From assembly GCA_036172245.1 (NCBI GenBank), contig JAYWIR010000055.1, positions 248,001-312,000 of the forward strand: a stretch of 64,000 nt of DNA. Reading direction: 5' to 3'. The position numbers were made by a program, and so were the translations under genes. Source of the stretch: Raillietiella orientalis (taxonomy: Eukaryota). Within the stretch, counting starts at the first letter, position 1; each line of letters begins with the position of its first letter. This document shows positions 6,201 through 62,075 of this stretch, piece by piece. Under the pieces are notes generated by a model that was not told the origin of the DNA, did no database searches, and saw nothing but the letters and a program-made list of their open reading frames with translations.

Positions 6201-6299
6201 GGGCGCCTCTTTGCACGCAAACAAACACGCTGCTCTTGCGGTCCAGCACGTGGCGAGAGAGAAGGTCACTGCGGCGAAGCAGGGCAGTCAGCGGCATGA

Positions 6300-7130
6300 A
6301 TTTTTGTTTTTTGGCTCTCAAGAAGTGCCGAACACCCGTCCGCCTCCCTACGGGGGGCTCGCGAAGCTCTCTTGGACACCGCCCACGACACTCGAGGGTG
6401 CGTGTTGACTCTCCCAGTTATGGGGAGTGACCCCAGAGTGGTGCCACCTTGTAGAATCCAGGAAGGACCCGGAGGGATCAGTTCCTCTTACGCTTGAAAG
6501 GGGGAGCCGGAGAAACCTCCCGGAAGGTGCCCGCTCCCCGTTTGCTCCTCCTCCGAAGGAAACCCGGGAGGAGCGCCCCCGATTCCTCTGCAGGGCGCTC
6601 TCCGAAGGGAGCAGCGCACTTTTGGCACTCTGAAGGGTCCCCTCTTGAGGATAGGGGAGACCCATTTTTGCAACCGGGGTGGGAACCCTGGAGGGCTGCT
6701 TGATGTCCTGGAAGGGCCCCGGAAGGTCGACTTCCAGTTCCTCCCGGTCAGCAGGAGCATCCAGCGTCCACCAGTGCCTCTGCACCCGAATCGGCCAACC
6801 AGCGCCATCCTTCAGAGGGATGGGGGGAGGGCACTTGAAGTCCTCACAATGCACCCCCCATTTCTGGGCGTCACCCCTTCCCACCCCGGGCAGGATTCGA
6901 ACCGGCCACATTTGGTGCCGCACGGCCGCCGATGCGGCCCACGCCTTCCGCTGGGGAAACTAGGTGCCCCCACTGTGAAAGATGCGGAGGAAGAGAAACG
7001 TTCCCGCACCTTCCCGCAAATCGACGGGACCTCCAACTAGGGTGGCGCCGAGTGGCGCACAGCCTATCTCTCCCGAATATGGAGATGATGCTGCTCCTCC
7101 ATCGCGTACCACGGAGCTTGTTGATGCCCC
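6300..7130 (+). mobile_element. Module B copy 1: degenerate ~39-nt repeat region followed by IGQPA and a CxxC-ETFPHL zinc-finger-like motif
   Basis: Visibly homologous to 47640-48640 and 61400-61870 (RHSRVRV/RHPRLRV/CHPRVHV; DPEG/LPEG/LSEG; IGQPA/TGQPA). Near 6965-7010 it reads CPHCERCGGRETFPHL. Frameshifted. Confidence 0.6.
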
Positions 7131-7134
7131 CCCG

Positions 7135-7360
7135 GGGAGTCGCCCCTCCAGGGTGCGAAGAAACGCGCTACTCCCTTCGGCAAGCGCCCTGCAGAGAAAT
7201 CGGGAGGCACCCCTCCCGGGTTCCCTTCGGAGGAGGAAATGGGGAGCGGGTTTCTCCGGAGACAACCAGGGCGGGGGTCCGTTTTAGGGTTCTCCTCCGG
7301 TTGTTGAGGGGATCGTTTCTCGGATGAGACCCAGTTAGGGATCTTTCACAGGAATCCGCA
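7135..7360 (-). repeat. Inverted partial copy of the module B repeat array
   Basis: The minus strand reads RFLCRALAEGSSAFL, against RFLCRALSEGSSALL on the plus strand at ~6578-6625. It also shares CCCTGGTTGTCT with 47860-47871. Confidence 0.8.
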
Positions 7361-8539: not shown

Positions 8540-10200
8540 TGGTGCGGCCTGAGGGCAGGTGAATCCGCTTGGGGATCCTCCCGGTGCGGTACTTTAAGTA
8601 CCTCGGTGTGCCGTTGGGGGATTATGGCGTGGTCCAGGTGCCTTCAGAAGTCTGAGACGGCTATCGGTCCGTTCCAAGGTGGCAGGTTTTTCCTTCCGGA
8701 ACGGGCCACAGTGTGGAGCACGTTCATGGACCCCCTCCTTGGGCCCTTGCTTCTTGTTTGTCCCCCCACAGAGGAGATAAAAAAGCGGGAGAAGGACCTC
8801 TGAGGATCGGCCTTTGGGGTAGAGGGAGGCCCCAAGATCCTACTTGTGGACTTGTGCATTCCGCGTCGGGACGGTGGTCTCGACCCCCTGGCGCTGGGGC
8901 GGCTGGAGTGTCAGCTCCAGTTCCGGATAGTTGACTTCATGGCGAAGAACTGGAGCACCACCTGGTGCGTCCCTGCACATCTCGTCGTCGAGCAGGCCAC
9001 CGGCAACGTGGGACTATCATCCTATCTTGCACTCCGAAACCCCATCTGCCACTTCGAACTACAGTTTCGGAGGGCAGTCAAACTCGCGAGGACCAACTTG
9101 GGATAGATCTCCATCCGCCCCGCGAACGGTAGTGCCTAGCTTCAGGAAACCGTTCGCCTGTGGGCGAGGGTCCACGAGCACCGCGCGGAACAGGTGAGAA
9201 GATTCCTGTTCACGCGGCACAACCGCACGCTCCAAGAGATCCTGGAGGATCCCCCCAAAAGCGCGTGGGCAGGAAGAACTTCCCTTGCTGCGGCGTTTCC
9301 CTCCCTCAGGGAACATCTAAGCAGCGACATCGCGGCAAAATAAGAGGTTTTCATTAGAATCTCCGGGAAGGAGAAGTGGATCGGGGAAGGAAAAACAGGT
9401 CAGCTGACTAACGCTGCAACCCGAGTACACCCCACATCGACTCTTGCGCTGGGGCGAGCTGCTGGATGTTCGGGTGGAACATCTGAAGTGGCCCCGATGC
9501 TCATGGACACGCGCACCCTCCCCATGAAGTGGCAGCAGTCGGCGCTTTTGGTAAAGCACTGTGGTCTCCCATGCAATGCACGCCGTCACCACTGGACGCG
9601 GGGGGTGTTGACCCCAATCGTGTTAGGTGCGGGGAGCGAGAATCCCTCCTCCACCTATTAGTGGACTGTGTTGCCCTCCGGTCCCCATGGGAACGCTTTG
9701 CCGCAGCCCTGGGAACCCCCTGTAGCAACCCCAGAGACGCTATAACACCCCTCTTTGTTCGCGAAGTCCTTCGGCCAGCGGCCTCTCTTGCAGCCCTGTG
9801 CTGCCTACGTGGGATCGTCGCTGCATAGAGCAATGCAACGGAAGGTTCCAGCGATAGGGATGCCAGCGAATACGCCGTCCGCTTCCAGAGGATGACGACG
9901 CGATGGCTCCAAGTCTGGAAGTTAACACACAGGAAGAGCTTGTCAGCATCCTCCAGAGGATGCGACGGACCCTCCCAGCAGACTGTGGTCCTTTCCCGCG
10001 CTCTCCCAGTTCTTTTATTTATTTTTAATTTTTTTTCCTTTTTGTTTATGCTCTCTCCCCTCTGCTGCCGAGGTGGACGTCTGCGAACTGGTGACTCGGC
10101 AGGCTTTGCACAACTAGCGCGTGGCTGGACCATTCGTCCAGCCACAGATTCTGTAGATGGTTTATTCTGAAGAACAAATGCCCCGGCGCTCCAGGGTGAG
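8540..10200 (+). mobile_element. Module A copy 1: 5'-truncated, decayed L1/Tx1-like non-LTR retrotransposon (RT thumb to zf-RVT and 3' end)
   Basis: Motifs YFKYLGVPLG, CIPRRDGGL and NRVRCGERESLLHLLVDC, colinear with 50000-51680. Multiple stops and frameshifts. Confidence 0.85.
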
Positions 10201-10365
10201 AATCGAAGCCGCAGCTGGGATCGCGCGTCCGAAGCGAACGGCTGCGGCCAACGGGGACGCGTTCGCCCCTGTGGGGAAGACGGACGCGACCGGGAGCCAG
10301 GGGGTCCGAACAGAAGGCATCCCTGACGACCCAAGGCACACCGGAATGGACGCCAAAGGAGGCGT

Positions 10366-12722
10366 TTATGAGTGCGCACCGCCCGAGTCTAGGTGGCGGC
10401 GCGTGGCGCACCGCTGACAGCACGCCGCCATCCGCGAGACGAAACGATCCACCGGCTCCAGACTGCGCATCCACAGCGGCAGGAAGTCCCAGGAGCGGAG
10501 ACGCTTCGGGAGCCACCGGGGGCGTCTCCTCTGCAGGACGGCGAGGAGGGCGATGGTGGTGCCCGCGGCGAGGAGAGTGCCGCCGGTGGCGACCAGGGCT
10601 GCGGTACCCGCAAGGGATAGGGCGAAGGCGAGCGCCGGCAGGAGGACGAAGGCACCTAAGAGGTAGACCAAGGCGAGCCAGCGGCGGCGCGCCACAGCGG
10701 CGCCCACGGCCCGCGCCAGGGGCAGGGGCAGGCGGGTCGCAGGCACCACATAGAAGACGAGGACGCCGAAGATGTTGAAGAAGAGGTGGCAAAGGGCTAT
10801 CTGCAGGGCGGGCCGGAAGCGCTCCGGAGGCGCGGCCAGGGACGCCAGCAGGGCGGTGGTGGTGCTGCCGACGTTGGAGCCCAGCACGAGCGGGTAGACC
10901 CTCTCCAGAGAGACGACCCCGAGGCCGGCCAGGGGGGTCAGCGCGGACGTGAACACCGAGCTGGACTGAACGAGGACGGTCAGTGCGGCGCCCACCAGCA
11001 TTGCCAGGTACCCCGTGACCCACGGTGCGCGGGGGATGTCCGAGTCCAAAGTCCGCAACACCACGCTGGCCATCTTGCCTGAGGCATGCCGGAGGGGAAA
11101 GATCGCAGGGTTCCCGAATGAGGAAATGGGGAAGTGGAAGGGTGAGGGGTCACCAGCGCTTACCTTTGAGCACGCTGGTCAGGATCTTCACGATGCCCAG
11201 GAGGCACAGGCAGAGGACCAGCAGCGAGGCGCACAACAGGACGGCGCCGATGGCGGCATCGCTCCAGGGGACGGCGGCGAAGAGGAATCTGCCTGAGGTG
11301 CGTGGGCGTGGGGATCCCCTGCGCTTCCCCGCCCGCCCACTCACAAGGTGCCCCTCCGCAGTCTGCGCGCAGCAGGGACGTCCGGTTGTCGCTTGGGAAA
11401 GACTCCCGGACGGGATCCAGGGCTTTCAGGTCCAGCTGAGGAGAGAGAGCGCCACCGTCCCTCTGGATATCTTCCGCATCCCCCCATCCCCGCTCCGCCG
11501 ACCTGCACGACGCGGTCCAGCAGGGGGTCGGTCAGCGCGGACAGCAGCCGCACCTTGGAGACGGTGGTGGAGGAGGCATTTCCCGCGCCCGCTGCTCCCA
11601 CGATGGCGCCCGTCATCTTCTCCAGCAGCCCTGCGGGGCGTTTCGTGACCCCGAGCGTTCCTCGCCAGCAGGAGGAAGGGCGGGAGGAGGCGCAATTTCT
11701 GACCCCTGACCCTTCCCGCCCGCCTCACCCGTGCACACCTCCAGGACGAGGAATACGGCAGCGTTCATCCAGTTGAAGGCGTCGTGCAGCACCCCCGCTG
11801 CGAAGGCCTTGCGGAAGATCTCGCGATCCCCGGCCTGCGTCATGGCGACGAAGCTGCTCGTGACCGACGTGCCGACGTTCGAACCCATCACCATGGGGAT
11901 GGCCTCTCGCACAGTGAGCACTGGGGGGTAGGAGAGGAGCTCAAAGGCAGCCGGCACCGCCGCGCGCGAGCCGCCTCCCCCCGCGCGGGGGGATGCGATG
12001 GAGAGGCCGCTTGGCGTCCGCACCTCCCGCCGCCACCATGCTGACGAGGATCGACGTCACGGCCGAAGAGCTCTGCAGCAGCGCGGTGCTTACGACGCCC
12101 AGCACGACGCCCACCAGGGGGTGGCGCATCAGCTCGCTGCCGCCCCCGAAGAAGGTACCTGGGGGAGGGGCGTCGTCTCCTCTTTCCACCCTATTGGCAC
12201 GGGAGACTCACCGGTCGCCTGGCCGGCCAGCAGCCGGAAGGCGACGCCCAGTAGCTGAAGAGAGCAGGTGAAGGCGTAGAGGCAGGCGACGACCCCCAAA
12301 GCCTTAGCAGTTGCCAGAGAGATCCGGAGTGCCCTCCTCCGGAGGGGGGCTGCGGCCCCTGAGAGGAAGGGGAAGAGTGGAGAAAGAGGCGCTGAGGACC
12401 GGCTCGTCGCCGAGGCGACCGTTTCTTGCAACCCTCTTCCCCCTTCACCCCCGAAGGGCGGACGCAGGAAGGGGCGACTCACCGCCCCTCTTCCGGCGCG
12501 GAGGCAGAGGAGGCCCGCAGGAGGCTAGGGCGCCGTCCAGCGGGATGAGGTCCACGGTCGACGAAGAAAGCGACGGTGGAGCCGGGTCCGCAGAGGACCC
12601 GATAGGGGGGGTCCGCGCCATGCTGGACAGCTGCAAGAGGAGAGAGGTGACTTCAGCGGCTCGCCTCCCCCCACCTGGATCGCCGCGCGCCAGGCGCCTC
12701 TCACCTGGTTCTTGGGAGCCAT
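10366..12722 (-). CDS. SLC34A: Sodium-dependent phosphate cotransporter, SLC34/NaPi-II family, paralog A (~566 aa)
   Basis: Nine exons (12722-12705, 12630-12483, 12358-12212, 12158-12024, 11920-11729, 11630-11503, 11435-11345, 11292-11164, 11078-10366) total 1701 nt in frame, all GT-AG. Two QSSS repeats, [38 protein letters not shown]. Confidence 0.93.
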
Positions 12723-14654
12723 GGGTGCCACGGATCTCCCCAACGACGGCGGCGGCGCGTCACTCTGGTAGCGCGCAGGTCGACGGTGTGTGCTGCGGGT
12801 GACGGGACGCGCCTGCGCAAAGCGCTCCGCTGCACGGATGGGCGGGGCCTCTGCCCCGAGGGGCGTAGGTCGTCGCCAGCGTCTCACACGTCACTGCGCC
12901 TTTCCCTCCTTCCTGCTCCTGGCTGGCCTGGAACGGCCGCGTGTCGGGTCACGGGCTGGGGGAAGAGGAGGGGGAGGAGGAAGGAAGGGAGGGAAGAGGA
13001 GGAGGAGGGGGAGAGATCGGTGCCACTCCCCCGCTTCCCAGCAGGGGAAAGGAGGAGACGCGCTCGCTTGGCAGCCGACGAGAACGACCTCCGCGCTGGA
13101 GAAGGCGGGGCGCATCGCCGGACGCAGAGTCCGCGCGCGCAGTGACCCCTGGACGGGTTCTGCCGCCGGGCGAGAGGGGGAGTCCAAGAAGAGTCGGCAG
13201 GTGGAGGATCCCTGACCATGTTGGTAGGGAGTTGGGACCGCTGCGGGAGGCGATAGGACCCATCACCCGGGCATGCCCTCCGGACCTCTCTCGTCCCGCG
13301 CGCACCTCGTGGCCGTGGGTGGCGCAGTGCGCGCACCCACGGCCACGAGCCCGCCCGCCTCGGGGGTGAGGGTTTTTCGTTTCTTCGACGGGACACAGGA
13401 GAGAGGTGCGGCCCGGCTAGCGAAGGCGCACGTGTCGGCGGGCAGCGTGCTTCGGCTTGGCCGAGCGACCAGGGGAGGGCAGAAAGGTGGCGGAGGGCCG
13501 AGTGCACTTGCGCACTTTTCTCCTGGCGACCGGGTTGCCGTGACGCGATTGAAAGATCCACCGCGTTCCTCTCGACTGGGTCGAATCGGGAGTTTGGGTG
13601 GATTCCCCCTTCCCTCCCCTCCCACACAATCCTTTCGTTTGCTCTTTCATTTTCTTCCTGTTTCATTTTTTTTTTTTTCATGTTTTCTCGCCAGAGTGCC
13701 GCCGAACTCTCCGAGAGAAAGAATTGCGCGAAACGCTCTGCTGCGCCCTCTGTTTGGAGGGAAACGAGCGCAACAATGGAACCCGCCCGGTCGCGGAGCA
13801 CAACGTCATCTCCCGCTCGTTTGTCGAACGAAAATTTTTCGAGGACGCAACTTACTGTGAAAAGGTGCTCACACGGCGGGACCACGTGGAAAGGCACTGG
13901 AGACAGGGAAGCCGGTCGAGGCGGCGAGGAGCAATGGGCCCGTCCCCTTTTCGGAGAGGGCGTCAACGCACCGGCGAGCACACGTCATGTCCCGAAATCT
14001 GCGTCACCGGAGGGGGCCGCGGAGGAGGAAGCAGACGGGCCGGGGATCAACTGATTTTGTGAGCGGATATCCGCTTCCGTGTGGGCGGAGGGGGGAAGGA
14101 CAGGACAAAAGGAACAATCCTGGGACGCAGGGTCGCTCTGACTTGGCCACACAGAGGGCCCCCGCAGGACGAGTCTGATTGGCACCGGGCCGCCGCCGCC
14201 TCGGTTGGCGGCAGGCAACTGCGAGCCAGAGCGACCCAGTCGTCTCGGGTGCCGCGAGCCGCACGACACGGGAGAGGTCTAAAGGGCTGCAGGAAATCGT
14301 CGCCGGGATGGGCGGGGAGCGTCTTCTTCTCGGTCCACTTTCCTGGCGCTTCCCGCTCGAGGTCCGCTGCTGCCCGGCGAGTTGCGACGCGCTGGAGGAA
14401 GCGGATCGCTCGTTGCGCAACGCGGGCAGCGCGCGCGCGGGTTGAATCGACGTGACGGCGGTCACGTGCGCGCACGCGCGAACCGGAGGTGCCCCGTAGG
14501 CCGACGCGAGTTCGGCATGCGACACCAACACTCTTCCAGGCGCCTCCAAGAGTGGCACTCCGGGAGGAAAGGCGTCCTTCACTCTCTGTGAGAGTTCTCC
14601 CGGTCTGCACCACGAGAGGGAGAAACTCTGTCGCGGCGATCGACCGAAGGGCGG

Positions 14655-14745
14655 AAAGGAGGAAGAGGAGGAAGGGAGGAGAAGGAAGAGGAAGGGAGGA
14701 GAAGGAGGAGGAAGGGAGGAAGCGGATGTAGTTTCTCTCTCTCTC
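14655..14745. repeat. Purine-rich (GGA/GAA)n low-complexity tract plus a short (CT)n
   Basis: Seen directly in the sequence. Confidence 0.8.
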
Positions 14746-15371
14746 GTGCGTGCGCCTGCACGAGCGCCAGAGGGGCGTCCGGTCAAGTCACGCGCGCACG
14801 TTGATGTGGTAAGCAGCAGCAACACCCACGCCGCTCGGCAGCGGTTTTTCGAACTTCAGCACCAATCCTGGATTTCAGCTGAAGAGTCACGCGGGGATCC
14901 CCCCTTTAAGGGAGGGAGGCGCGCCATCGCTGCACCTCCGCAAACGGTGCGCCCCTCTTCCTCCTCCTCCGTGCTCCCAGCCAGATGCAGACGCGTATCG
15001 AGCGAGGAGGTGAGCACAACGAACTCCGTTGACGAGGAACCAGGAAGGGAAGGGTAGGGCGGCCCTTTCTTTGGGAAATGACCGATGGACACCTTTCCGC
15101 CCCCCAACTCCAGAGGGTGGTTGCGGCAGCACAAAGCCAGGAAGAGCCCGACGGGCGCCCGAGGCAGCGGCGCAACTAGAGAGCTGTGCGCCCCCCCTTT
15201 CCCCCTTCCCTTCCTTCCCGAGAGGCATGTGGGCCGGGTCGAGTTCGCCCCCTCCTCCCTTCCTTTAGGATGGCGGTGACCTCGACCGTCCCAACAAGGT
15301 GGTCATCACAGTCGTGTATTTCGCGGGCCGTCCCGCTCTCCTGCGGGGCCGCGGGCTGCGTTCTTCCCCCC

Positions 15372-18300
15372 TCAGACGCTCTGCTCCACCTGCGTCCTGG
15401 GCATCTCTCGCGCGACCGCCTTTCTCTCGCTTTCCGGGGAGCCGAAGAGGCTTGGGCGGTCTTTGGGGGCGTGGCCCCTGCAGCATCCGAGGGTGCGGAT
15501 GCAGACGTCGAGGGGCTGTAGGCTGCGCATCCAGAGGGGTAGGAAGTCCCAGGAGCGCAGGGTGTGGGGCAGGGCCTGGGGCCTGGTCTTCTGCAGCTTG
15601 CCGATGACAAGGGCGGCGGTGAGCACTGTCGCCAGGATGGCCCCGACGGTTCCCAGGACGACTGGACCCCCGAAGGACAGGGCGAACACGCACAGGGGCA
15701 GCAGGACGAACATGACGAGGACGTAGGCTACCGGGAACCACCGGTACCGGGACGTGGTCTCCCCCAGCACCCTAGCCATCCGGATGGGGAGGCGTGACTT
15801 CGGCACCACGTAGAAAAGGAGGACGCCGGTCAGATTGAAGACGAGGTGGCAGAGGGCAACCTGCAGGGCGGGCCGGAAGTTCTCGTCCGATGAGGCGAAC
15901 GAGGCCACGATGGCCGTAGTGGTGGTGCCGATGTTGGCTCCAAGGGTCAGCGGGTAGATCCTCTCCAGGGAGATGAGGCCGATCCCGGCGAAGGGAGTGA
16001 GGATGGAGGTGAAGACCGAGCTGGACTGCACCAGGATGGTCAGCACGCATCCGGTTAGGATGACCACGTAGCCGGTCAGCCAAGGGACGTACGGAAGTTC
16101 CCCGTTCAGGACGTGCTTGATGACCCCGGCGATGTATCCTGGAAAACGGGGTGCGCTGAAGGGACGCTCGAGCAGCGGCAAGTTGCCTGGAAACGGGGAG
16201 CGGGGTGAGTGGAGAGGTATACGGACCCTTCAGCATGGACAGCAGCAGCTTGACAATGGAGAGGAGGCACAGGCACAGGCAGACCAGGGAGGCGGCCAGC
16301 AGGATCCCTCCGACGACCCTGTCGGTCATCTCCGTCCTGGCGAACAGGAAGGAGCCTAAGGGGACAGAGAGGAGGGGGTCACGGGAGAGGAGTGGGGGAG
16401 GAGAGGGCGTACAGGTCGGCGGCGCCGCGCCCTCCTCCGGCAGCGGCTGGTCGGAGCAGTTCCTCCGGATCATGGAGGTGGCGTTGGCGTGGGCGGCGAG
16501 CTCGGGCAGCCGAGCCGAGGCAGCGCCCGCGGTCCACGCGCGGATGACGTCCCTGTCGAGCTGGGCGGGAACGCGCCATTCGAGTCCCGGCCGGATCCCC
16601 GGGGCTTCCCCTCCGTACCTGCACGATGAGGTTGAGGAGGGGGTCGGTAAGAGCCTTCAGGAACTTCACGCCTCCCGCCCGGTGGCTGCGGCGATCGTCC
16701 ACGTGCGCCACGATCCACCCGGTCACCGCGCTCAGGTACCCTGGGGGAGGAGGATGACCCCTGCGGTGAGATGCCGGGGCGGATCCTCCCCCGCGCGCAA
16801 AGAGACGGAGCGATCGCGGGAGGACAGAAGGGGATGCCCTTGCGCGAGCGCGAGCGCTGCTCGCTGTTGCCATGGAGAGGTCACGCTCGTCCCGGGTCAA
16901 GGGACGCCTCGTGTCCTCGCCAGCTTCCTTGGAGGGGTCCCGATAGTCCGTCCCGTCGCGACAGATCGGGGTGCCGCGGGGCACCCGTCCACGTCGACGA
17001 CATCGGACGAGAGGGGGCGCCTCGCCCCTTGGGGGGAGGAGGACGACCACTCTTGACCCCTCCGGAGCCGGGGGCAGGAAGGGAACACCCTTCCTGCCGA
17101 AGGAAGGCGAGCGGTCTACCCGCCCGCTCGCGTTTCCTCTGGGACACCAGGGAGGGTCGCCACCCACACAGCCCCCAACGCTGGTGCGCTGACCTTTCAC
17201 CCGACCCCCGACCCCCGGCTTCCGAGGTCAAGGGTCGCGCGGACGGAGGCGCCCGTTACCTGTGCACAACTCAACCGGCAGCAGGACGAGGACGTTGAGC
17301 CAGTTGAAGACGTCGTGGATGACGGCCGCCGCGAATGCCCTCCGGAAGATGACCACATCGGCCATCTGCGTCAGCGACACCACGGAGTTGGTCACAGAGG
17401 TGCCAATATTGGCTCCCATGATGATGGGCACGGCGTCCTCCACGGTGAGGACTGAAAAGCAAATCGCGTGTGGTGAGGGCGGAGGGGTAAGGAGGGCCTG
17501 ACCCGGGAGGGGGCGATGCGCTACGGGAATCCAGGGACCCGCCACTCTTCCTCCCCCCCTGCCGCTGCGTTGCGCCGGTGAGGGAGATGCCCGCTCGGAG
17601 ACTGCCGAGCGGATAGGAGGGGGAGACAGGTCCTGCGTCCAGATTGGTGAAGTCAGCGGAGGCGGCAGGCGAAAGGTCGACTTTCCCTCCCATTCGCCTC
17701 TCCCCATGCAGCCCCCATCGTCCACGCGTAGACGCTCCGCGAAAACGGTGCCTTGCTGCCCACGGACAGCCTAAAGGCGACGCACCAGAGTCGCGGATGT
17801 CGGGCGGTCGAGGTGATGGACTTCCCGGGGACAGCAGGGAAGGGGACCCTCCCCCCCTAAAGGATGGGTGGGAAGGAAGGCAAGAGACGCTCTGAGGGAA
17901 TGGTGCGAACGGATGGAAGCCGGCGACGGTGCGCCGAGTTGCCAGGGGAGAGAAAAGAGCCGTCTGGGCGAGCTGCGCTCCGTGCCGGAGAGGGGGTGAC
18001 GACTTGCCCCGAAAGGAGTGCCGCGGCCTCCTCCAGTCGGGGGGTGGGGCGCCTCCCTATCGCTGCCGCCAGTTTCCCTACGGAAGCAGGGACGAGCGTC
18101 TCCTCCCCCCTCGAAAGTGAAGGGGAGAGGATGACCTGGTGCCGCTCGGTCCGCGGCTGACAGACCGCTTCCCCTTTCGCGGCTGGGGTCGAGGGACGCA
18201 AGGGAAGAAAGGGAGGGGGAGGAGCCCTCCGCAGAGCCACACCCACGCGGAGGAGGAGCAGCAGCTCCCGTTTCCTCCTTCCCGGCCACGGGAGCGGACG

Positions 18301-20749
18301 AGGGTCCCTCCAGGCGACGGCGGCTCACCTTTCGCGGCGACCATGCTGACCACGATGGACGTGAAGGCGGAGGAGCTCTGCAGGAGGACCGTGGACAGCA
18401 CCCCGATCATGACGCCCACAACAGGGTTCCGGAGGAGCTGCACCTCCTGGAAGATGGAGCCTGCGAAGAGGGGGGCTGCTCCGGGATCACCTAGCCCATC
18501 TGCCTACCCGTGACCCTGCCGGCCATCAGACGAAAGGCCATGCTCATAAGACCCAGGCTGCAGACGAAGCAGTACAGGAAGAAGAGCAGGCCGAGACACT
18601 GGCAGACGACGAGGGCCGCCCTCCGGGCCTTCTCCCCGCGGTTCAGCTCTGTGGAGACAGACACACAGAGTTACCCGGGGGGCAGTGCGGAGGGGGACCA
18701 CGCGCTCCTTCCCTCCCACCCCCGGGTCGCGTGGGCGCGCACGCCACCCCAGCCCTTACCACGAGGCAGTCAGCTGCGCTGCGGACGGCCTGCAGAGTCA
18801 CCCCCTGTACTGGGAGCAGCAGCGGGCGACTCCAGCCCGCCCACCACCAAAACTCCGGGACCTCCTAAGGTCCTCGCAGGAGGAGTCTGTCCGGGAGCAG
18901 AGGGGCGCGCCACTACTCGCGCGCACGCACTTGCCCCTCGGGAGGTGGCGGCGTCAGCCACCGGGGATCGGGAAGAGGAAGGGGAGGGAAGATCACGGCG
19001 GGCGGGAAACCATGACAACCCCGAAAGGCACTCGGGAACGAAGGGAAGCCGCGGGTCGTCGTCCCAGCGGCCGGAGGACGCGACGGAGATTCCTCGCGCA
19101 GCAACAGATTGAAAGGGCGTCCTGTAGACACGAGGGACCGATTGCTGCTATGATGTCACCCGCGGAGGAGAGTGAAGCATCCCTTGCAAATAAGCCCGGG
19201 GACGAGGTGCGTAAAAAGCGAGTGGAGGGGTCAGAGATCCAAGATGGAAAGGAGAGCGAGACCCCATGCAGTCGATGCCGCTTGGCCACCAAGGAAATGT
19301 CCACGCCCCAAATCACCAAGCGAGGGGGGGCCGGACTGGCTCGCCCCTGGCTCGGCGTCTCGGCAGGGTCGGACCGGTCCGAGCGGCGAAGAGGATCCGG
19401 GTTGACGGGAGGCAACTACCAAGCGGCACGCGGATAGCGTCCCTCCCCCTTGCCTGCCGCGCGCGCTGTGATGCGCGGATCGCGGACGCGCGCGCTCCCG
19501 GGTGGGTTCCCACCTCCCATCGCCAGGGCCAACCCTCTCTGGCCCTCTCGGTGGTAGCGACCGCGGCATCCGTGGGCACACCCCAGGCATCCGACTCTCC
19601 GCGACGTCTTCCCAGTGGCCACAGAAAGTGGCATCGTCTCATTGGCCAGAGGACACGACGTCGTCTCAGTGGCCCCATCAGGGTTCCTGCGACCTCCGCA
19701 ACGCGGTCGTCGGGAGCCGCCGCGAAGAAGTGCCCGCTCGTTCCGACCGGTGAGCAGCTGCAGGAAGCCGCTGTCCGCCTTCCGGCGAGCGAGCGGGCGT
19801 CCCACCCGAAGTGGCACCTGGGACGAATGGATCCCCGCGCAGGGAACGTCTCCTCTCCCTGATGCGCCCGCCGCGGAAGAGGGAGCTCCCGGCGTCAGCA
19901 GCCGAACGCGAGTCGTGTCCACGTCCGCGGCGTCCGATCGATACCTTTCGAAAGAGTTCGGTCACGTGACCGCTCCGCCGCCGCCGCCACCTTCTGTCGG
20001 GCGGACGGACGTCACGCGCGGCAGCGCGCGCGCTCTCTGGCCGCGAACTCGCGTGCTCCCCGCCGGCCCTCTCGGCCCCTGTGCGGGATGGTGGCGACTT
20101 CCCTCCCCTCCTTTCCCTCCCGGTTTTGAATGCAGTGGTGGCGCAGGTGCTGCTCGGAAAGACCGCTCGGAAAACTAGCCGCCTCTTCTCCCGGACGGAA
20201 CCCGGAGGAGAGGGAAAGGGGTTGTCAGGAAGAGGCGCGAGGACTCCTCCGCCGGTCGGAGAGACCCGGAACCCACCGGGACGCGCGCCACACCGAAATC
20301 CGCGCCAATCACCTGCAGCCAACCGCCTCTCCCTGCTCTTTGGCAGCAGAGAGGCCGCCGAGGCAAACGCAAGCCAGCTGGCCGGACCGGGTCAACAGCG
20401 AGTCTGAGAAAAAGCGGACTTACCTGACCAGTGCCACTCCCTGTCACTCAGTGGTATTTCCGGGAGGCTCCACGGGTCGTTCCGCAGGAGTTCCACGGTC
20501 GATACATTCCGGACGACGTCCCCGCATTCTAGGGAGTCCGAACTGAAGTTTGGGGGCAGGCTGTAGCCCTAGGGTTTGTGCGGAAGAAGAAGGGGGAAAA
20601 AAAAAAGACTTCATTACTTGACGTCCAAATCGCCATGAGGAAAAGGGGAGGGGCGTGCAGCAACGACCAAGGGAGGAGGATGCGAAATTCAAATTTGCCC
20701 GCGAGAGTCTCCGTCGTCGCCACCAGTGGCTCCGACACGTGCATTTCAT
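15372..20749 (-). CDS. SLC34A: Sodium-dependent phosphate cotransporter, SLC34/NaPi-II family, paralog B (~635 aa; first exon and start uncertain)
   Basis: Exons 20749-20618 (tentative), 20568-20424, 18648-18508, 18460-18329, 17451-17260, 16740-16619, 16560-16413, 16355-16227 and 16138-15372. The family N-terminal DPWSLP...WSEL is spliced across a 1775-nt intron. Two QSSS repeats, [32 protein letters not shown]. Core intron positions and phases match paralog A. Confidence 0.92.
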
Positions 20750-47229: not shown

Positions 47230-47440
47230 ACTCTTGCCAATACTCACCTGGGGCGAGCTGCTGGGGATTCCTTGCGCATTCCTGATGTGGCCGCCAGTGT
47301 TGCAGGACAACCGCACCCTCCCTCTCAAGTGGCAGGAATCGGCGTATGCTGCTTCTGCTGCTGCATTGGGGTATCCCATGAGAAGCGCGCCTCTACCACT
47401 GGCCCCGTGGGAGGGTGGGTGAGGAGTGCGACAGGGGCGG
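47230..47440 (+). mobile_element. Module A fragment (region just before the zinc finger)
   Basis: WGELLGIPCAFLMWPP...TLPLKWQESA matches KWPP...TLPLKWQETA at ~50920 and WGELL at ~9450. Confidence 0.75.
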
Positions 47441-47639
47441 GAAGAAAAGAAGAAGCGGTCCACTGAGAAAACCAGAACCCTCGGGAAAAAGAATGGCTCC
47501 AAAGAGGCATCCAGCTGCAAACCGCCCGGTTCGGAACTCTACCTGGGCAACGGAAAGTCAGCAGGAAGTCAGGAAGCTCTTCTCGAGGAAATCTTTTTGG
47601 GTTCGCTATCTTCTCCAGTCTTCGCTATCTTCCTTCCAA

Positions 47640-48640
47640 CTTTTCTTTGGTTCTCCAAGCACCTCAAGAACCGTCGCGCCCCTGGCGGCGGCGCACGCAG
47701 TTCTTTGACATCGTTCCACGCCACCCGAGGTTGCGTGTAATTCTTCAATACAGGCGGTACCCCGAAAGGGGACCGCCCTATGAATCCAGGAAGGGTTCCG
47801 GAGAAGCGAGTCCGTTCCTTCCACACCTGGGAGGAATCCCCGAAGGGAGATCACCTCCACCCTGGTTGTCTTCAAAGGGGATCTTCTTCCTTATTCTCTC
47901 CGGAGAGACCTCGGAAGGGTCCGCCCCATTTTTCTTCTCCGAAGAGATCCCGAAAACGCCCGCTATAGTGGGAATTTCTTTTCTGGAGGGAACCTGCAAG
48001 GGAACCGCTCCTGTTTACTCCTCTGAAGAGAACCCCGAAGAAATGTCTCCGAATTTTCTCAGAAGGGCGCTCCCCAAAGGGAACGGCATGCTTCTCTGCA
48101 CTCTGAAGAGGTATCATCACCAGCTTCAATGTACGAGACAGAGAGGCCCCTCAAGAAGGGGAGTCCGTTCCTTTGCACAAGCGAAGGGGAGTTACCCGCC
48201 GGTTCTGCAAAAGCCTTGATTCTGCTTCCTGGAAGGACCTCGGAAGGTCGACTCCCAATCCCAGCCACTTATCGGGGCGTCCGGTTTGAACCGCTACTAT
48301 TGCCATTCCCGAATTCTACAGGCCAGCCAGCATTACAGGAGGAACTCGACCCACGACGCACCCTCATCTCTCGGAGTCCATTCTTTCCGAGTATTCGAAC
48401 CTGTGACGCTTGGTGGTGCAACGCGCGGAGACCGCGACCACATAGCCTCCTACGCGTGCGAAGATCAAGTCCGTCCAACGTCGGAACCGTAGAGAGATTT
48501 CAAGATCCACTGCGCCAACCACATTCGACCCCAAAAATCTGTGTCTGAAGAAGTCTCTCTGCACAACCTCAGCTGATCATCGGGCCGTCGGCGCTTCCTT
48601 GCAGATCGAGGGGACGTCACGGGTTGATGGGGGCTGGAAT
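47640..48640 (+). mobile_element. Module B copy 2 with the longest ~39-nt tandem array (about 11-12 units, 47760-48250)
   Basis: CCGAAGG-like cores at about 47762, 47798, 47840, 47912, 47950, 47995, 48035, 48074, 48153 and 48241. Translation ETSEGSAPFFFSEEIPK...TCKGTAPVYSSEENPEE...LPKG. Confidence 0.65.
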
Positions 48641-48749
48641 AGCAGCTCGCGGGGGCGTTTTTGCGCTGCCGCTAATCCCTCCCCCTTTGCCCTTCCTGAA
48701 GACGCTCCTCCCACCTTCTCCCTTCCACAACCTGGACAGGAGGCTGAAT

Positions 48750-51680
48750 CCGCAGCAGAAAGGTAGGCTCGGAGAGGCGTTCTCCACAGAAGTGGGAAAC
48801 GCGTCTGCAGGACCATGCGAGGACGCGGGCAGCCGGTCCTCGCAGCATGCCCATCCTCCACCATTAGCACCACCTGTGCGCCCACTTACGTCTATTCCGG
48901 GAACTCGTGCAAAGGATACTGGAAGGCAAGAGGCTTTCGTCGTCATTCCATGGAAACGGGATGAGACTGCTGCCAAAGGAAAACGACCTGACTGGCGTCA
49001 TCCAGTGGCGACTGATCTCTATCCCAAACTCAGATGCCAACGGCTTGAGCACGACCGTGTCCTTGATGATTTCTCCAACGCAGGCTTCCAAGTTGGCCGG
49101 ATTCCGCATGCCTGCGGGCGATGTGACATGTGTCCAGGACACCTTCGGTTGTAGACGCTACGTTGTCGAAGAACCTGGCGCTAGATTTCTCAAGAATTCC
49201 AAGGAGAATTCCATACCTTGGACCAAGGAATGGTGTCACAGATATTGAAGAAACTGGGATTCCCAAGATAATTCAGCCAGTACGTGAGGGTAATTATCGA
49301 AGAGCAGTTTTTCAAGATGCATGGATCGACAGACATGACACAGACGCGATCCGGATAGAGAGGACTCCATCCAGCAGACGACTTCATTCCGATGCTGCTT
49401 GATGTTTACCTGGAGGCGATGTCAACACCTCCCGAGGGAGACACTTTTAAGAAATTACAGCAGATGACGACAGACTGACTCCTGAGTATGAGCCGAAAGG
49501 TTGAGGAAACCCTGGATTCTCCGTTGACCAGGGAGCAGACGGGCAAGGAGTCCTTGAGGTCGCGGTCGATTTGAGTAAAGCATTCGACTGAGTCGGAGCT
49601 TCTTCTGGGCTTCTCGGCAGATCAAGGGGCCTACTCGCTCTCCAGCTGGAGCGGCGCGCTGATCCACGTTTCTTTAAGCAGTCAAAACGTGCACGGCCTG
49701 CCGGTGCGGCGCGGCATACAGCAGAGCCGACAGCCTGAATCACCTGCTCTTCAGCATCTACTTTGAGTTGGCGCTGAGAACATACAGGGAGACTCTGGCA
49801 ACCTTACCGAGTTCGTGTCCGGTCACGCCTGTCGTGTCGGTCTATGCCGACGATCTTCTGCTGCTGCTTCCAGGGTCCACCCTGGCGTCCGCTCTCGAAG
49901 ATTTCTCTGAGCTGCTGCGCCGCGGGACGGATCCTAAGGTGAACAGGGAGAAGTCGTTCATCGTGGCAGTCGGTGCGGCGTTGGCCATACAGTCAGACTG
50001 GATCCTCTTGGGGATCCCCACGGGCAGGTACATCAAGAACCTTGGCGTTCCGCTGGGGGACTTCTGTCCGACAGAAGTCTGGTGGGTCCGTCTTCAGAAG
50101 ATGGAGTTAGCGATCGGCCCGTTCCAGAACGGCAAGTTTTACTTGCAGGAACGGGCCGTGGTGTAGAACGCGTTCGCGGCCCACCTCGTTCTCCCCCTAC
50201 TTTTTGTTTGCCCCTCCCCACCCACATGAAAAAAAGGACCGAGGACCTCCTGAGGAAAGTCCTCTGGGGCACAAGGAGGTCTTGGGTCCGTTTAAAAGAC
50301 TTGGGCGCTCCACGCAGGGACGGTGGACGCTGGAGCGCATGGAGCTCCAATTTCGAAAAATCGCCCTCGCGGCGAATTTGTGGACAACGCCATGGTGCGA
50401 ACGCGCACGCCCCCTCTCCAGTAGAGCGACCGGCTGCGAAGGATTGCCTTCGACTGTCGTGGCCTACGACCGCAGCCTGAGGCACTGTGGCCATCAGCTG
50501 CGCGGCATGGTTACCCAGTGCAGGAGAGCACGTGGATCTCCTGCGTCCCCGCGAACTGTACCGCCTGGCTTCAGGAGCGTCAGTTTCCGCATGGGAAAAG
50601 ATCAACGGCTCGAGCGAGCCGGACTACGCATGCCTCCGTAGAGGCAATTACTCTGAACAGCCCCTGCAGGAGATTGTAAACAACCCACGCAAGTTGGGCT
50701 GTGGGCTTCTTTTACCCTCTTGCCCCCGTGCTGTTCTCCCTCAGGAACGCTAGGGACAGCAACGAACGAGCATCGTGGGAAGTGCCCTGCCTCATCGGAG
50801 GCAGGAAAAGACTGTTCAAGTCATGGACAACTCGGCAGCTAGTGGATGCTGAGACCCCGAGCGTCCTGCCTAAAGGACTTCTGCACTGGGCGAGCTGCTC
50901 GGAATACCTCCGGAGAATTTGAAGTGGCCCCCAGCGCGTTCGGACAAGGGCACCCTCCCTCTGAAGTGGCAGGAGACGGCGTTGCTATTCTTGCACTGGG
51001 GGATCCTATGCAGAGCACGCCTGTCTCACTGGACACTGAGGAATGTGGATGCCCGCTGCATCGAGTGCGGCGAAAGGAAAACCTTCCCGCATCTCTTAAT
51101 AGACTGCGTCGCCCTCCGTGAACTGTGGAATCGACTCTCGTCGATTCTGAATCTTCCAGCAGGAGACCCGAAAGACATTTTCCAGCATCTCTTCCTGCGT
51201 GACTCCCTGCCCCCCACCGCGTCTCTAGCAGTTATCTGCTGTGTTCGTGGAATCGGGGAGAGGTGGAACGCCAAAAGAGTAAGGCAGAACAGCAGGGACG
51301 CAGTGCACTGGACCACGATCTTCTTGGAGACTGCGTCAAGATGGCTCCACCGGAATAATTTAAAAGCAGCACTTGTCAGCATCCTAAACAGGATGCCGAG
51401 GACCAATGCAGTGATCCCTTCCCTGCCCTCCCCTCCTCGAATAAACATTGTCCTCCTTTTTTCAATTCTTTTTGTTTTGTTTATCCCTTCCCTTTCTCCG
51501 CCGGAGTGGAACTCAGCGGTCTACGTACTGGCTCATGAGAAGTCTCCCGAGCGTGGTAGAACCAAGTGTTCTACCACGAAACAAGCATTAGTAACGACTT
51601 TATTATGGAATTTTTTGTATAAAAATTTTAATAATAAATGCCCCGTCAAATCCCGGAGAAAAACGCCGGTGTCTTCTGCT
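48750..51680 (+). mobile_element. Module A copy 2: decayed L1/Tx1-like reverse transcriptase ORF with C-terminal zf-RVT
   Basis: Motifs in order: LLPKENDLTGVIQWRLISIPNSD, VAVDLSKAFD*V, RRGIQQ, LLFSIYFE, YADDLLL, KVNREKS, IKNLGVPLG, APRRDGG, CIECGERKTFPHLLIDC. Stops and frameshifts make it a pseudogene. Confidence 0.92.
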
Positions 51681-54455
51681 GCTGTTCTCCATGTCCGGCT
51701 CGGCGTCAGCACTCGAGGGCTTCTTGGAGCTATTCGTTCGGGTCAGGGGCTTGGATTTTCACCCGGGTTTGCCAGGGAGTTTATTGTAGTAAAAATGAAC
51801 AGCACAAAGATGGTGGGGGACCCACTGGCCCTATCACGTATTCAGACTGTTACAAACTTGCCGAGAAGACGGTGCGCAGACCGGGGTGTTCTCGACAACG
51901 GACAGGAAGGGAGGAAACCAAAGAAAAGTAAAAGTATAGATGTTGAAGTAGAATAACTTTGGGAGGCACGGAGAAGGGATCATAGCCTTCCAGGAGCCGC
52001 CCCCTGCGTCCTCTCCAGGAGGGTGTTCAGTTCCTTTTGCATTTGCTTCAAGTGGGGTCATCTCGTTGGCCTTCGCAAAAAAGGTAGGGCGAAGCGCATG
52101 GAGCCCCTAGAGTGGCCTCCCCTTCTGGCGTCTCTGCTAGCCGCCACAATCCGGCTCAGGCAGGCTGCTAGCGAGGCTGCCGGCCGTACACCAAAGACCC
52201 AAACTGACCGTCCGGAACTGCAAACAGCTCGCCACCAGCGGCAACTGCCTCAAATTGCGACTCTTCCGATACACTGAAAGTCAAAGGAAGATTTTATTTA
52301 CCCCCTGGACATGCGAAAAATGGGAAAATCATAACGAAATGAGATTCAGAATAATGAAGAAAGAATGTGCGGGAACTCTTTCCCTCCAACAATTCCCAGA
52401 AGCAATGAAGTCCTTGCCGCGGCTGCCAGTCGTTTCGGGATCAGAAACGTCGATCCTGCAAGCGGGACTGGAATCCGGGGGACCTGCTACCAGACACTCA
52501 GGACGACCTCCTCTCATTTTGCCATGGTGGAATCCGGAGTGGATCTGAAGACGACTTCGTCGTGGGGTGTGGGGCCGAGGAAACTCGGTTGCAGGTTCTC
52601 ACCTGCCCAACGCTGCGCCAAGACTGGGCAGAACTGAGGGAGGCGGGGTCTGCAGGGCAGCACGAGAATGCAAATGGATCCTGACGGGATGTGTTCCCGA
52701 CACGACCTCCTGCTGCGAACAAAGATGGCCCTCTCCATCACACGCGTTGTGATAAGAGCAAAAAGGAGAAGAGAGAGGCAAGCAACGCCATCCGTGACCA
52801 CACTGAAAGGACCCATTCAGAGGGAGATCGGCAGGAGGCACTGCGGCAGAATCCCAGCCTGGTCGCTTCATCTGGAAAAAGATTGCGGATGCTGCCCAAG
52901 TGAGAGGAACGCCCGGCTGTCCCGGTGATCACATCCCAAGGACAAAAATCCCGAATGTGACCCACGAAAGTAGCACTTGGTGCTGCGAACGATGTTTGGA
53001 AACAGCGGCGAATGGGTCGTCTATCGTTTTGTGCAGCCGTTGCTTTGTATGAGTCGTTTTTGAACGAATTCACCCCACGGCTTGTCGGATTGGGAAAATT
53101 CCTGACCTGACCTCACTTTCCAGGCACCTCGACCACCGAAAAAAAGAGAACGAGCCCAGACAATAATCTCATGAGGCGTATGAAAGGAAAATGATAAAAC
53201 TTGACCTGTGCGCCCAAAGAATTTTAAAATAATTAGTAATATTCATTCTACATTTACCTAACCCGATTTTAAAAATGATTAGAAATCGTCAATAATTAAC
53301 ATCAGCATTTATCTGGTTAGTCATGAATTTGCAATTTACCTTTAAATAATGTCATAAATGGAGCTTTCCGCTGAGTTGTGACTTTGTGGCACCACCAATA
53401 CATTCTCGAAGGATAATGTGAAACGAACCTTCCCCTCATGAATACGACGGGTTTCATGATGATCTTACTATATCAAAGATCCTGATGAGGCACGAATACG
53501 ATGAGCGGGCCTCGGTGGTGAAGTTCTCTATACTGTAGAGGGATTGAAATGCACATCAGTTGCTTTGGAAGTGGTTTGCGAAACACTCAGCTGTGAAATC
53601 CATTCCTATTACTTTTTGGATAGACTTTTGACACATTCGTATTTTCTAGAAACGGGAAAATTCGAGGCAGGTAATAAATGCACATTACGGATATACATAT
53701 ATATATGTATGTATGTAGAGTTTCTTATGAAATAGAATCTCCCAGCTTATTGTACTCCTGCTCGTGATTAAAACTTCCTATCACCATTTGCAACTGCATT
53801 GGATTTTTCTGCATCCAAGCGATGATCTTACAAATGCCTTCCCACTTCTCACTGTTTGCGATTTGTTCACTCTGTTACTGAATTCACCTTTCATGTTTTC
53901 GTTCCTTGGTCAAAGTTTCAGTGTACAAAGTCATACATCGAGGTCAAGTCGAGGATCCGTTCAACCTTTGATCACAGGACACAAATGGGGAGCCATAAGT
54001 TCACTAAGAAAACAAGATAATAAGGGCGACTTGATTCCAATGGCACAGAGGAGAAACATGCTAATGAAGTCCGTGTAAACATAAAGTAAAAACAGGTAAA
54101 ATCCATCTCTCTGATACTTTCTCAAAGCGATGTCTTCATGTCTGGTAATTCCAGTAACAAAAGATTCCAAAACCAGAATCAGTTTTGTTGTGATGCCAAA
54201 GTAGTGAAACGTGTCATCAAAACCAATATTGTAAACTTTTTACTGCGAAGTTCCAGTTGAAAACCAAAGTAACATAGCTACAAATAAAACATTTCGTTTC
54301 TTCAGCACTTTACTCATTTTAGCATAATCCCTTTGATTAAACATGTCTAAACAAGTAAGCCATAGTAAAACACTGTCCCAAAGGTCATTATTTCGATTCT
54401 CTGGAAATAACAACATTTTCATGTCTAAGTCTTTACTTAAACTTATTAAGAACGA

Positions 54456-60789: not shown

Positions 60790-61380
60790 GTTGATGGAAA
60801 CCCTTCTTAGGTCCACTAAGATGCCCAAGAACGGCCCTCTCTTCGAAGCGGCCCCCGACGACGCCTCACCACCCACGGATCCCGGTTGGCAGCCCCCCCC
60901 CCCCCCCCCCAAGGACGTTCTACGGCTCTTCTTCGTGAGGGACGCCCTGCAGCCAGCCGTAGCCCTGGCAGCACTGCTGCATCCGAGGGATTGTGGAGAG
61001 GAAGAAACAGACGACGAGAGGGATCCCATCGAGTATGCAGTTCGCTTTCTGCGGATAGCAACCCGATGGCCCCACCTGGGAAACATGCAGATGGACCTCG
61101 ACTGCATCTTGCAAAGGAATGGACCCTCCCCCCAGCGGACAGTGATCCCTTCCCGGCCCTCCAGAGTATCTTTTTTTATTTCATTTTTGTTTTATTTTTC
61201 TTTTTTGTTCTTCCCCCCCCATACCCCTCCCCTGCCGAGGAGAGTCGAGGAGCCGGTCTGTGCACCGGCTCCCCGACAGGTCGCATGATGTATTGGCCGT
61301 AGTGGGACCTTACACCACAAATGTATAGAAGAGTTCATTACTAAACGCCCCGGCGTGACCGGGTGGCAACGGCGACGCCT
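60790..61380 (+). mobile_element. Module A copy 3: 3' end of the L1/Tx1-like element
   Basis: PKDVLRLFFVRDALQPAVALAAL...EYAVRFLRIATRW aligns with the sequences at 9730-9910 and 51167-51350. It has the same T-rich tract and the same AAA(T/C)GCCCCG motif. Confidence 0.85.
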
Positions 61381-61399: not shown

Positions 61400-61870
61400 G
61401 GTGGTCTGTCGGTGCCACCCTAGGGTGCACGTGACCCTGGTAGTCCCCGAAGGAATCACCCTAATCAATGCAATCCGTTCCTCCCTCATGGGGACTTCTT
61501 ATTCTTTCCGAAAGGACCCCTCGACGGGGTCTGCTCCTCATTTCTTCCCAAAAAGCAAGGATAAGTTCTTCCCGAAGGGAGAAGCGCCATTCCAGCACTC
61601 TGGGAAGGAAACCTCCGAGGGAGGCAAACCAGCTCCGTGCAACGCGTGGAAGCTCTCCTCCGAGGAAGGGATTAGGCTCTATTTGCACGACTGCAGGGGG
61701 AACCACGAAGGGAACTGGCTCCTTGAGTCCTGCAAAGGACTCGGAGGGTTAACCTCTAATCCCGGCCAGTCAACGGGCAGACGATTTCCAACGTCCACGC
61801 ACCTCTCACCAGTGCCGCACACGAAGCCCATAGGCCAACCAGCGACTTGCAAGGGAGACTCCAAACCCGC
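61400..61870 (+). mobile_element. Module B copy 3, open as a single frame (ORF 61401-61970)
   Basis: CHPRVHV...DPSTGSAPHFF...FPKG...ETSEG...NHEG...IGQPA. Confidence 0.6.
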
Positions 61871-62075
61871 GACGCATTTCTTCTCGACCCTTTGCGGGTA
61901 TTCAAATGAATTCTCAAATTATTGTAAAAATAAGAAATCTTACATTTATTTTCTAGAATTAATGGCGTAATGAAATAAAGAGGGAAATAGTAACTGGGGC
62001 AAACGAACTTTAGGATGCATTGCACAGTTTTTTTGAGTGATCAAAAAGTTGAATAATTAAATTTTTAAGCTCATA

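Follow-up and report, generated by a model that had tools for sequence, protein, structure and literature searches.

Positions 47230–51680 of a 64,000-nucleotide stretch of the Raillietiella orientalis genome (the window; GCA_036172245.1, contig JAYWIR010000055.1, here G000:C55:248001-312000 of a 210-Mb genome) raise the question of whether they hold one retroelement of a new architecture or several ordinary ones lying side by side. The original prediction, made from the letters alone, distinguished a module A carrying a reverse transcriptase (RT) of L1/Tx1 type and a repeat module B, and proposed that the two form a composite element that recurs at three loci of the window and has no visible endonuclease. 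We hold with high confidence that the stretch is instead a nest built up by four or more independent retroposition events, comprising A as an ordinary truncated long interspersed nuclear element (LINE) and B as an older, unrelated repeat. Elsewhere in the genome, relatives of A are likely to form a guild of poly(A)-less LINE subfamilies of the L1/Tx1 group, each with its own target nucleotide in other retroelements, a short interspersed nuclear element (SINE) included. Two of them are referred to here as Y (a young subfamily in the lineage of A) and S (a sister family).

The central locus is a nest of retroelements

The central locus and the sequence to its right resolve into the following pieces:

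47240–47447, plus strand: older A-lineage LINE fragment, ORF2 codons ~1027–1093 (tblastn, 43–58% to intact ORF2)
47586–48457, minus strand: module B, near-complete copy of the ~870-bp repeat (profile positions 7–891 of 892)
48756–49427, plus strand: RT piece of a second L1-type lineage, 5′-truncated and decayed, motifs 0–4 (60–63% nucleotide identity to L285–L287)
49498–51665, plus strand: module A, a 5′-truncated, frameshifted L1/Tx1-group LINE (75% nucleotide identity to the intact L062 copy)
51673–51762, plus strand: short RT piece of another A-lineage copy, ORF2 codons ~674–703 (tblastn 53%, E 0.008)
51753–52190, minus strand: 3′ end of another A-lineage LINE (terminal motif from 51782, minus strand; tblastn matches)
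52190–53104, plus strand: C-terminal part and 3′ end of the second lineage (matches at 52190–52262, 52478–52883 and 53059–53104 to L285–L287)

The RT had been read as belonging to a single element. Its first part, 48756–49427, shares 45%/35% amino-acid identity with L285–L287, members of a lineage that is itself 26–28% identical in amino acids to that of A; A begins only at 49498, and RT motifs 3–4 are present twice in the locus, so the supposed RT is made up of two elements. Intact members of the second lineage are L285 (1224 amino acids) and L286 (1177 amino acids), and Exo_endo_phos and RVT_1 domains were found in both of the open reading frames (ORFs) scanned. Many long open frames of this lineage occur genome-wide, and its 3′ end, seen in the 3′ flanks of L285–L287 and at window positions 53059–53104, is also free of poly(A), with an AATAAA-like word and a GC-rich motif of its own.

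Module A was probably inserted inside the decayed second-lineage copy, the remainder of which lies at 52190–53104. Weighing against this placement, no target duplication was found at the ends of A in the window, and about 800 bp of the host are missing; that there was a single host copy is therefore something we infer. Contrary to the original prediction, B does not lead directly into the RT: its last position is 48457, and similarity to RT sets in at about 48733–48756. What had been taken for a first copy of A with an extra zinc finger, at 47240–47447, is the older A-lineage fragment; its nucleotide identity of 72% to 50888–51051 marks it as a different copy from the main A. The RT piece at 51673–51762 has nucleotide similarity to several genomic loci.

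Self-comparison of the window confirmed that A-like and B-like pieces are present at each of the three loci; that they lie on the same strand, as one repeated unit, did not hold. On the minus strand, B has its tRNA-like head at the right (in the central copy at ~48390–48457, with the tail at ~47586), so the common strand is an artefact of reading. The A pieces of the window belong to different subfamilies with mutual nucleotide identities of 60–72%, and the B pieces align to each other at 61–82%, which argues that no unit was copied whole. Tandem Repeats Finder detected no array at any of the three loci, and B is thus not a tandem module. Both modules also occur alone in the window, where no clear stand-alone copy had been recognized: B as an inverted piece (7093–7251) and the LINE as the minus-strand 3′ end (51753–52190).

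Module A is a truncated copy of an endonuclease-bearing LINE

Module A is an ordinary L1/Tx1-group LINE copy that has lost its 5′ half. It contains ORF2 codons ~545–1203, the 3′ untranslated region (UTR) and a terminal motif at 51633–51665, and its Pfam matches lie below cut-off (RVT_1, E 0.009; zf-RVT, E 0.001). At least 51 genomic matches were found, most of which share one 3′ end point and differ in their 5′ starts. L062, a relative with 75% nucleotide identity, has an open ORF2 of 1207 amino acids with Exo_endo_phos (E 1e-12), RVT_1 and zf-RVT (E 4e-5, below cut-off), and carries the GDFN and SDH motifs of the apurinic/apyrimidinic endonuclease (APE). L065 and L192 are full length, with ORF1 upstream of ORF2; a zinc knuckle in ORF1 of L065 is again below cut-off (E 0.007).

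That no endonuclease is visible at the locus was borne out, both upstream of the RT and throughout the window: the best match to a profile of 17 natural A-lineage APE domains had an E value of 5.7, with the control at 2e-132. The observation that A lacks a poly(A) tail was likewise correct. Such 3′ tails are usual in mammalian and most plant L1 elements; here their absence is normal for the family, which ends instead with AATAAA, then a short GC-rich motif and some four further bases. This pattern has 1,795 matches in the genome (reversed control, 0), and an A-run follows none of 100 Y ends.

The closest solved structure for the A-lineage RT is LINE-1 ORF2 (E 6e-49; next group, 6e-15). In a quick RT tree (52 of 63 rows, near-identical Y copies dropped, without a curated Tx1 reference), the local families form one clade with 100% support; this clade shares an open fork with plant L1 and with fish proteins, among whose cluster members one bears the name 'transposon TX1'. 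Of the L1/Tx1 affiliation first proposed, the L1 superfamily is upheld by both structure match and tree; because the fork is open, membership of the Tx1 clade is not.

Several other arrangements of A-lineage copies were seen. A 99.3% identical inverted copy of most of A (window 50007–51659) lies on the same contig at C55:432108-433601 (L032, L073), on the minus strand and 135 kb from the decayed A; the two copies nevertheless disagree over their final ~30 bases, and gene conversion, recent copying or an assembly artefact may account for the pair. Two A-lineage 3′ ends lie tail to tail with about 30 bp between them at L039 / L075 (G000:C36). For head-to-head ORF1/ORF2 arrangements 5′-inversion (twin priming) was considered and rejected, as the inverted parts are other subfamilies running past the breakpoint.

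Module B is a dispersed repeat with a tRNA-like head

Module B is a dispersed repeat of ~870 bp with unique flanks and 70–81% identity among copies, and its head word has 1,266 matches in the genome (control, 0). Judged from its sequence, B is probably a tRNA-headed SINE lying on the opposite strand to A, and its putative transcription, if it occurs at all, would run opposite to that of A. Of 32 aligned pieces, 27 have a box B-like word beside the sharp end and 18 a word resembling box A, and B heads align to the genome's own tRNA-Glu with a mean score of 45 (shuffled heads, 29.6 +/- 4.5). The other end is short and of CATCAT type. Three B-derived frames gave no Pfam match. Close same-orientation pairs of B copies were seen at 5 of 29 loci (L008, L018, L022, L025, L026).

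Several results tell against a tRNA-derived SINE: ARAGORN found no tRNA gene in 30 B loci, Rfam returned four chance-level matches to B and none to tRNA, a tRNA model gave 7 weak matches, a target duplication flanks only 1 of 10 complete copies, and the B tail matched neither of the two L1-type lineages. It is nevertheless unlikely that B is some other non-autonomous repeat, such as a solo long terminal repeat (LTR), a LINE UTR or a DNA-transposon derivative. Its length, great for a SINE, its decayed cloverleaf and the rarity of duplications would suit such an origin, but the promoter-like words at the sharp end and the tRNA-Glu scores do not, nor does the absence of any shared coding flank and of all but traces of inverted self-match.

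Family S is inserted at one site in B

At one sampled LINE end (L083) the LINE lies inside B, with B on both sides. The corresponding junction pattern, which joins the end of family S to one nucleotide of B about 110 bp downstream of its box B, has 256 matches in the genome and none in the control. Sixteen of these loci were read, chosen from the best-matching places listed, two of them being too short to reach the 5′ end. B flanks the insert on both sides in 14 of the 16, and a duplication of 10–20 bp (allowing up to one mismatch per six bases) in 12; the inserts measure 522–918 bp. S copies lie on many contigs and are mostly 74–80% alike. Judged by eye, 51 of the 100 S ends listed, out of 123, match the B site over 15 bases with at most 3 mismatches; because the last letter of the search pattern drops some off-site ends, the true share is somewhat below this.

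The suggestion that one family targets the other therefore holds for S into B and fails for the window copies themselves. In alignments over 200 nucleotides S shares 59–70% identity with the A copies of the window, and none of the three window B copies is interrupted at the S site, which is mutated in the central copy.

Subfamily Y is inserted in the ORF2 of sister LINEs

Of 105 Y ends, 100 were listed and read, 60 over ~430 bp around the 3′ junction and 40 as long loci, with two cut short by contig ends. Of the 100, 49 lie antisense at one nucleotide, at about codon 358 of the ORF2 of other subfamilies, a site that falls in the APE-RT linker of these sister LINEs. Their 49 hosts form 17 clusters at 90% identity, with 22 in the largest. 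At four of the 40 long loci (L170, L177, L184, L195) the site is duplicated and the host frame resumes beyond the insert. A duplication of at least 9 nucleotides was found in 13 of the 40, although some of the 9-nucleotide cases are probably due to chance. Against independent insertion, 16–18 of the 22 long loci at the site have no clean duplication; most of the other copies at the site are covered at the 5′ side by further insertions, so that duplication or transduction may account for them.

Ten of the 100 Y ends run into the 5′ end of Y itself; this apparent second hot spot was rejected as such, being made up of head-to-tail copies. Other end variants recur in small numbers at antisense ORF2 sites at about codons 62, 70, 302, 492 and 575. 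Seven of the 40 long Y copies (L169, L179, L183, L185, L189, L196, L203) are cut at Y position 3894–3901, where they meet the 5′ end of an element on the opposite strand. These elements belong to at least two subfamilies, and Y is thus itself a target at about codon 297.

The S-in-B and Y-in-ORF2 junctions might also go back to a small number of old insertions multiplied by segmental duplication or 3′ transduction, which we regard as very unlikely. The large 90% cluster of Y hosts, 10 of the hosts falling in one 97% cluster, and several Y copies with 5′-covered ends are what amplification would leave, but the hosts are spread over 17 clusters, the 5′ breakpoints differ, each with its own duplication, and the S copies are for the most part too unlike one another. 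Independent insertion by related LINEs with separate target nucleotides, if true, means that the target choice of closely related APE domains has shifted more than once, in one case to a SINE.

A and B probably meet through shared location

The remaining two loci of the window contain the following:

6299–6950, minus strand: locus 1, diverged B copy, S target site empty (profile 64–859)
7093–7251, plus strand: locus 1, B fragment in opposite orientation (profile 442–589, inverted)
8563–10205, plus strand: locus 1, 5′-truncated A-lineage LINE of another subfamily, ORF2 codons 729–1182 (end motif at 10176)
60868–61369, plus strand: locus 3, last ~500 bp of a LINE from a further A-lineage subfamily (flanked by an imperfect 12-bp duplication, at 60856 and 61370)
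61432–61906, minus strand: locus 3, diverged B copy, S target site empty (profile 283–385 and 507–836)

At locus 1, 1.6 kb separates B from the LINE, with the inverted B piece in between, and the LINE is 60% identical in nucleotides to 49999–51518. The B copy has a weak tRNA-model match (6882–6935, minus strand, E 0.35). Just to its left, at 6180–6210 on the minus strand, the LINE terminal motif recurs in degenerate form, perhaps as the end of one more LINE that is very short or old, and a weak ORF2-like protein match (33%, E 9e-6) at 6947–7249 overlaps the inverted piece. At locus 3, B may extend to both sides of the LINE piece; the left remainder gives an E value of 8e-4, which is not above shuffles. 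The junction there was considered as a second hot spot and rejected, its pattern occurring once in the genome, in the window; together with the 12-bp imperfect duplication, this uniqueness makes it look like a one-off insertion in or beside B.

Elsewhere in the genome, an A-type ORF2 within 1.5 kb is lacking at 24 of 29 B loci; at the other 5 it is present, in opposite relative orientation in 3 cases. Conversely, 25 of 29 A loci are without B. B occurs near A-lineage copies at 16 of 89 loci and near tRNA genes, which served as control loci, at 4 of 30 (p 0.78). A different comparison points the other way: pieces of L1-type ORFs are present at 7 of 29 B loci and at 0 of 30 tRNA-gene loci (p 0.005), the control loci being shorter than the B loci and genic. 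From this enrichment the association of A and B is not purely random, and some of the co-location is real. The stretch that joins B to A (48460–49500) has no full-length match elsewhere in the genome; its 14 other matches are all partial, and 13 of them include the RT part.

A partnership, in which A targets B or B is a SINE moved by A, is highly improbable. S does target B, two of the 100 Y ends (L176, L221) abut B, and locus 3 may be an insertion into B; however, L176 and L221 join B at separate points (about 610 and 737), the junction at locus 3 occurs nowhere else, and neither A-lineage nor second-lineage elements resemble the B tail (best E 0.8; other LINE clades were not searched). Scarcely credible is one novel endonuclease-less element of B, an extra zinc finger and RT spreading as tandem units, for which the proximity of A and B pieces at three loci and the lack of an APE in the window would speak, but in which the joining stretch should have a full-length match elsewhere, B should not be mostly solo, relatives should not have an APE and the RT should not derive from two lineages. 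The original prediction had itself named B occurring mostly without A, and full-length relatives of A with an ordinary ORF1 and APE, as observations contrary to a new tandem architecture; the first is seen at the 24 of 29 loci, the second in L065 and L062.

The window also has pieces of eukaryotic genes, namely for alpha-mannosidase, a phosphatase domain and an Na/Pi cotransporter. Genes resembling the last of these, at least two in tandem, lie at 10366–18503 on the minus strand in a block of 63–69% GC; between 32 and 38 kb, by comparison, GC content is about 31%.

A model for the origin of the nest

Target-primed reverse transcription from an APE nick is established for L1-type LINEs (PMC4494074). 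A-lineage insertions have target duplications of 9–20 bp and variable 5′ truncation, and such truncations and duplications would be expected because of this mode of insertion. ORF1, the APE and the start of the RT were lost from A by 5′ truncation during target-primed reverse transcription, and A probably came to rest in the decayed second-lineage copy. B is an older, abundant non-coding repeat unrelated to A and most likely a tRNA-derived SINE, whose putative polymerase III transcript would have been mobilized by some other LINE. The APE of each subfamily may nick a preferred short sequence, and such a subfamily-specific preference is, on the junction sequences, the simplest candidate cause of the single-nucleotide peaks. 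The RT may recognize its own conserved 3′ end; a point against this is that the possible 4–5 bp stem in the terminal motif is no more stable than shuffles (z −0.6 to +1.1). The three juxtapositions of A and B in the window would then reflect shared occupancy of repeat-rich regions, with a one-off insertion in or next to B at locus 3. The window locus is thus ordinary, and exemplifies how nested truncated retroelements can mimic a new architecture.

Comparison with known systems

B resembles tRNA-derived SINEs (general features in PMC4494074) in being non-coding, dispersed and of high copy number, with a tRNA-like head and promoter boxes, and differs from them in its long body, decayed cloverleaf and short CATCAT-type end. 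At the 3′ end, the A lineage is comparable to stringent-type LINEs, which have a conserved 3′ end and include one monocot L1 lineage (PMC3747384). Shared with these are the conserved 3′-terminal sequence and a possible short stem; here, however, there is no poly(A) or tandem-repeat tail, the stem is of 4–5 bp with an energy that is not significant, and no SINE sharing the LINE tail was found.

Nesting in existing copies is known for Zepp of Coccomyxa (PMC3446292) and ZeppL of Chlamydomonas (PMC8226300), L1 elements that nest in their own copies. As in those systems, L1-type LINEs here insert into existing copies and build nests of 5′-truncated pieces, and the 10 of 100 Y ends that run straight into the 5′ end of Y are a further likeness. 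Zepp, however, targets itself and forms one cluster per chromosome, whereas Y lies mostly antisense in sister subfamilies and S is found on many contigs of an assembly that is not at chromosome level.

A close parallel is with target-preferring LINEs of the Tx1 clade, for which one study (PMC4494074) lists Tx1 in Tx1D, the crocodilian Tx1-Mar in Mariner-N4_AMi, Tx1-8_Crp and Tx1-4_AMi in LTR elements, and Tx1-9_AMi in Harbinger. The known targets given there include DNA transposons, LTR elements, microsatellites, satellites and small RNA genes, and specificity is taken to mean that over 20% of flanks are of one type. This level is exceeded by Y (49/100) and S (51/100 listed), the figures applying to these two and not to the older subfamily of the window. 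The local LINEs share with the Tx1 clade an ORF2 of APE, RT and zinc finger, 5′ truncation, target duplications and a fixed place in other mobile elements; the difference lies in the targets, a SINE-like repeat and the ORF2 of sister LINEs. Titles and the beginnings of abstracts found by literature searches, among which were few subscription papers and no Repbase reports, mention no animal LINE with either target.

As targeting of other transposons by Tx1-group LINEs is known, that by S and Y extends an established behaviour. On present evidence the genome-wide targeting is real, in the form of LINE-into-SINE insertion, with 256 junction matches and independent duplications, and of LINE-into-LINE insertion at 49 of 100 ends, and it is a variant of what Tx1 and Zepp do. 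Close APE relatives with different single-site targets would be good material for studying how endonuclease specificity changes.

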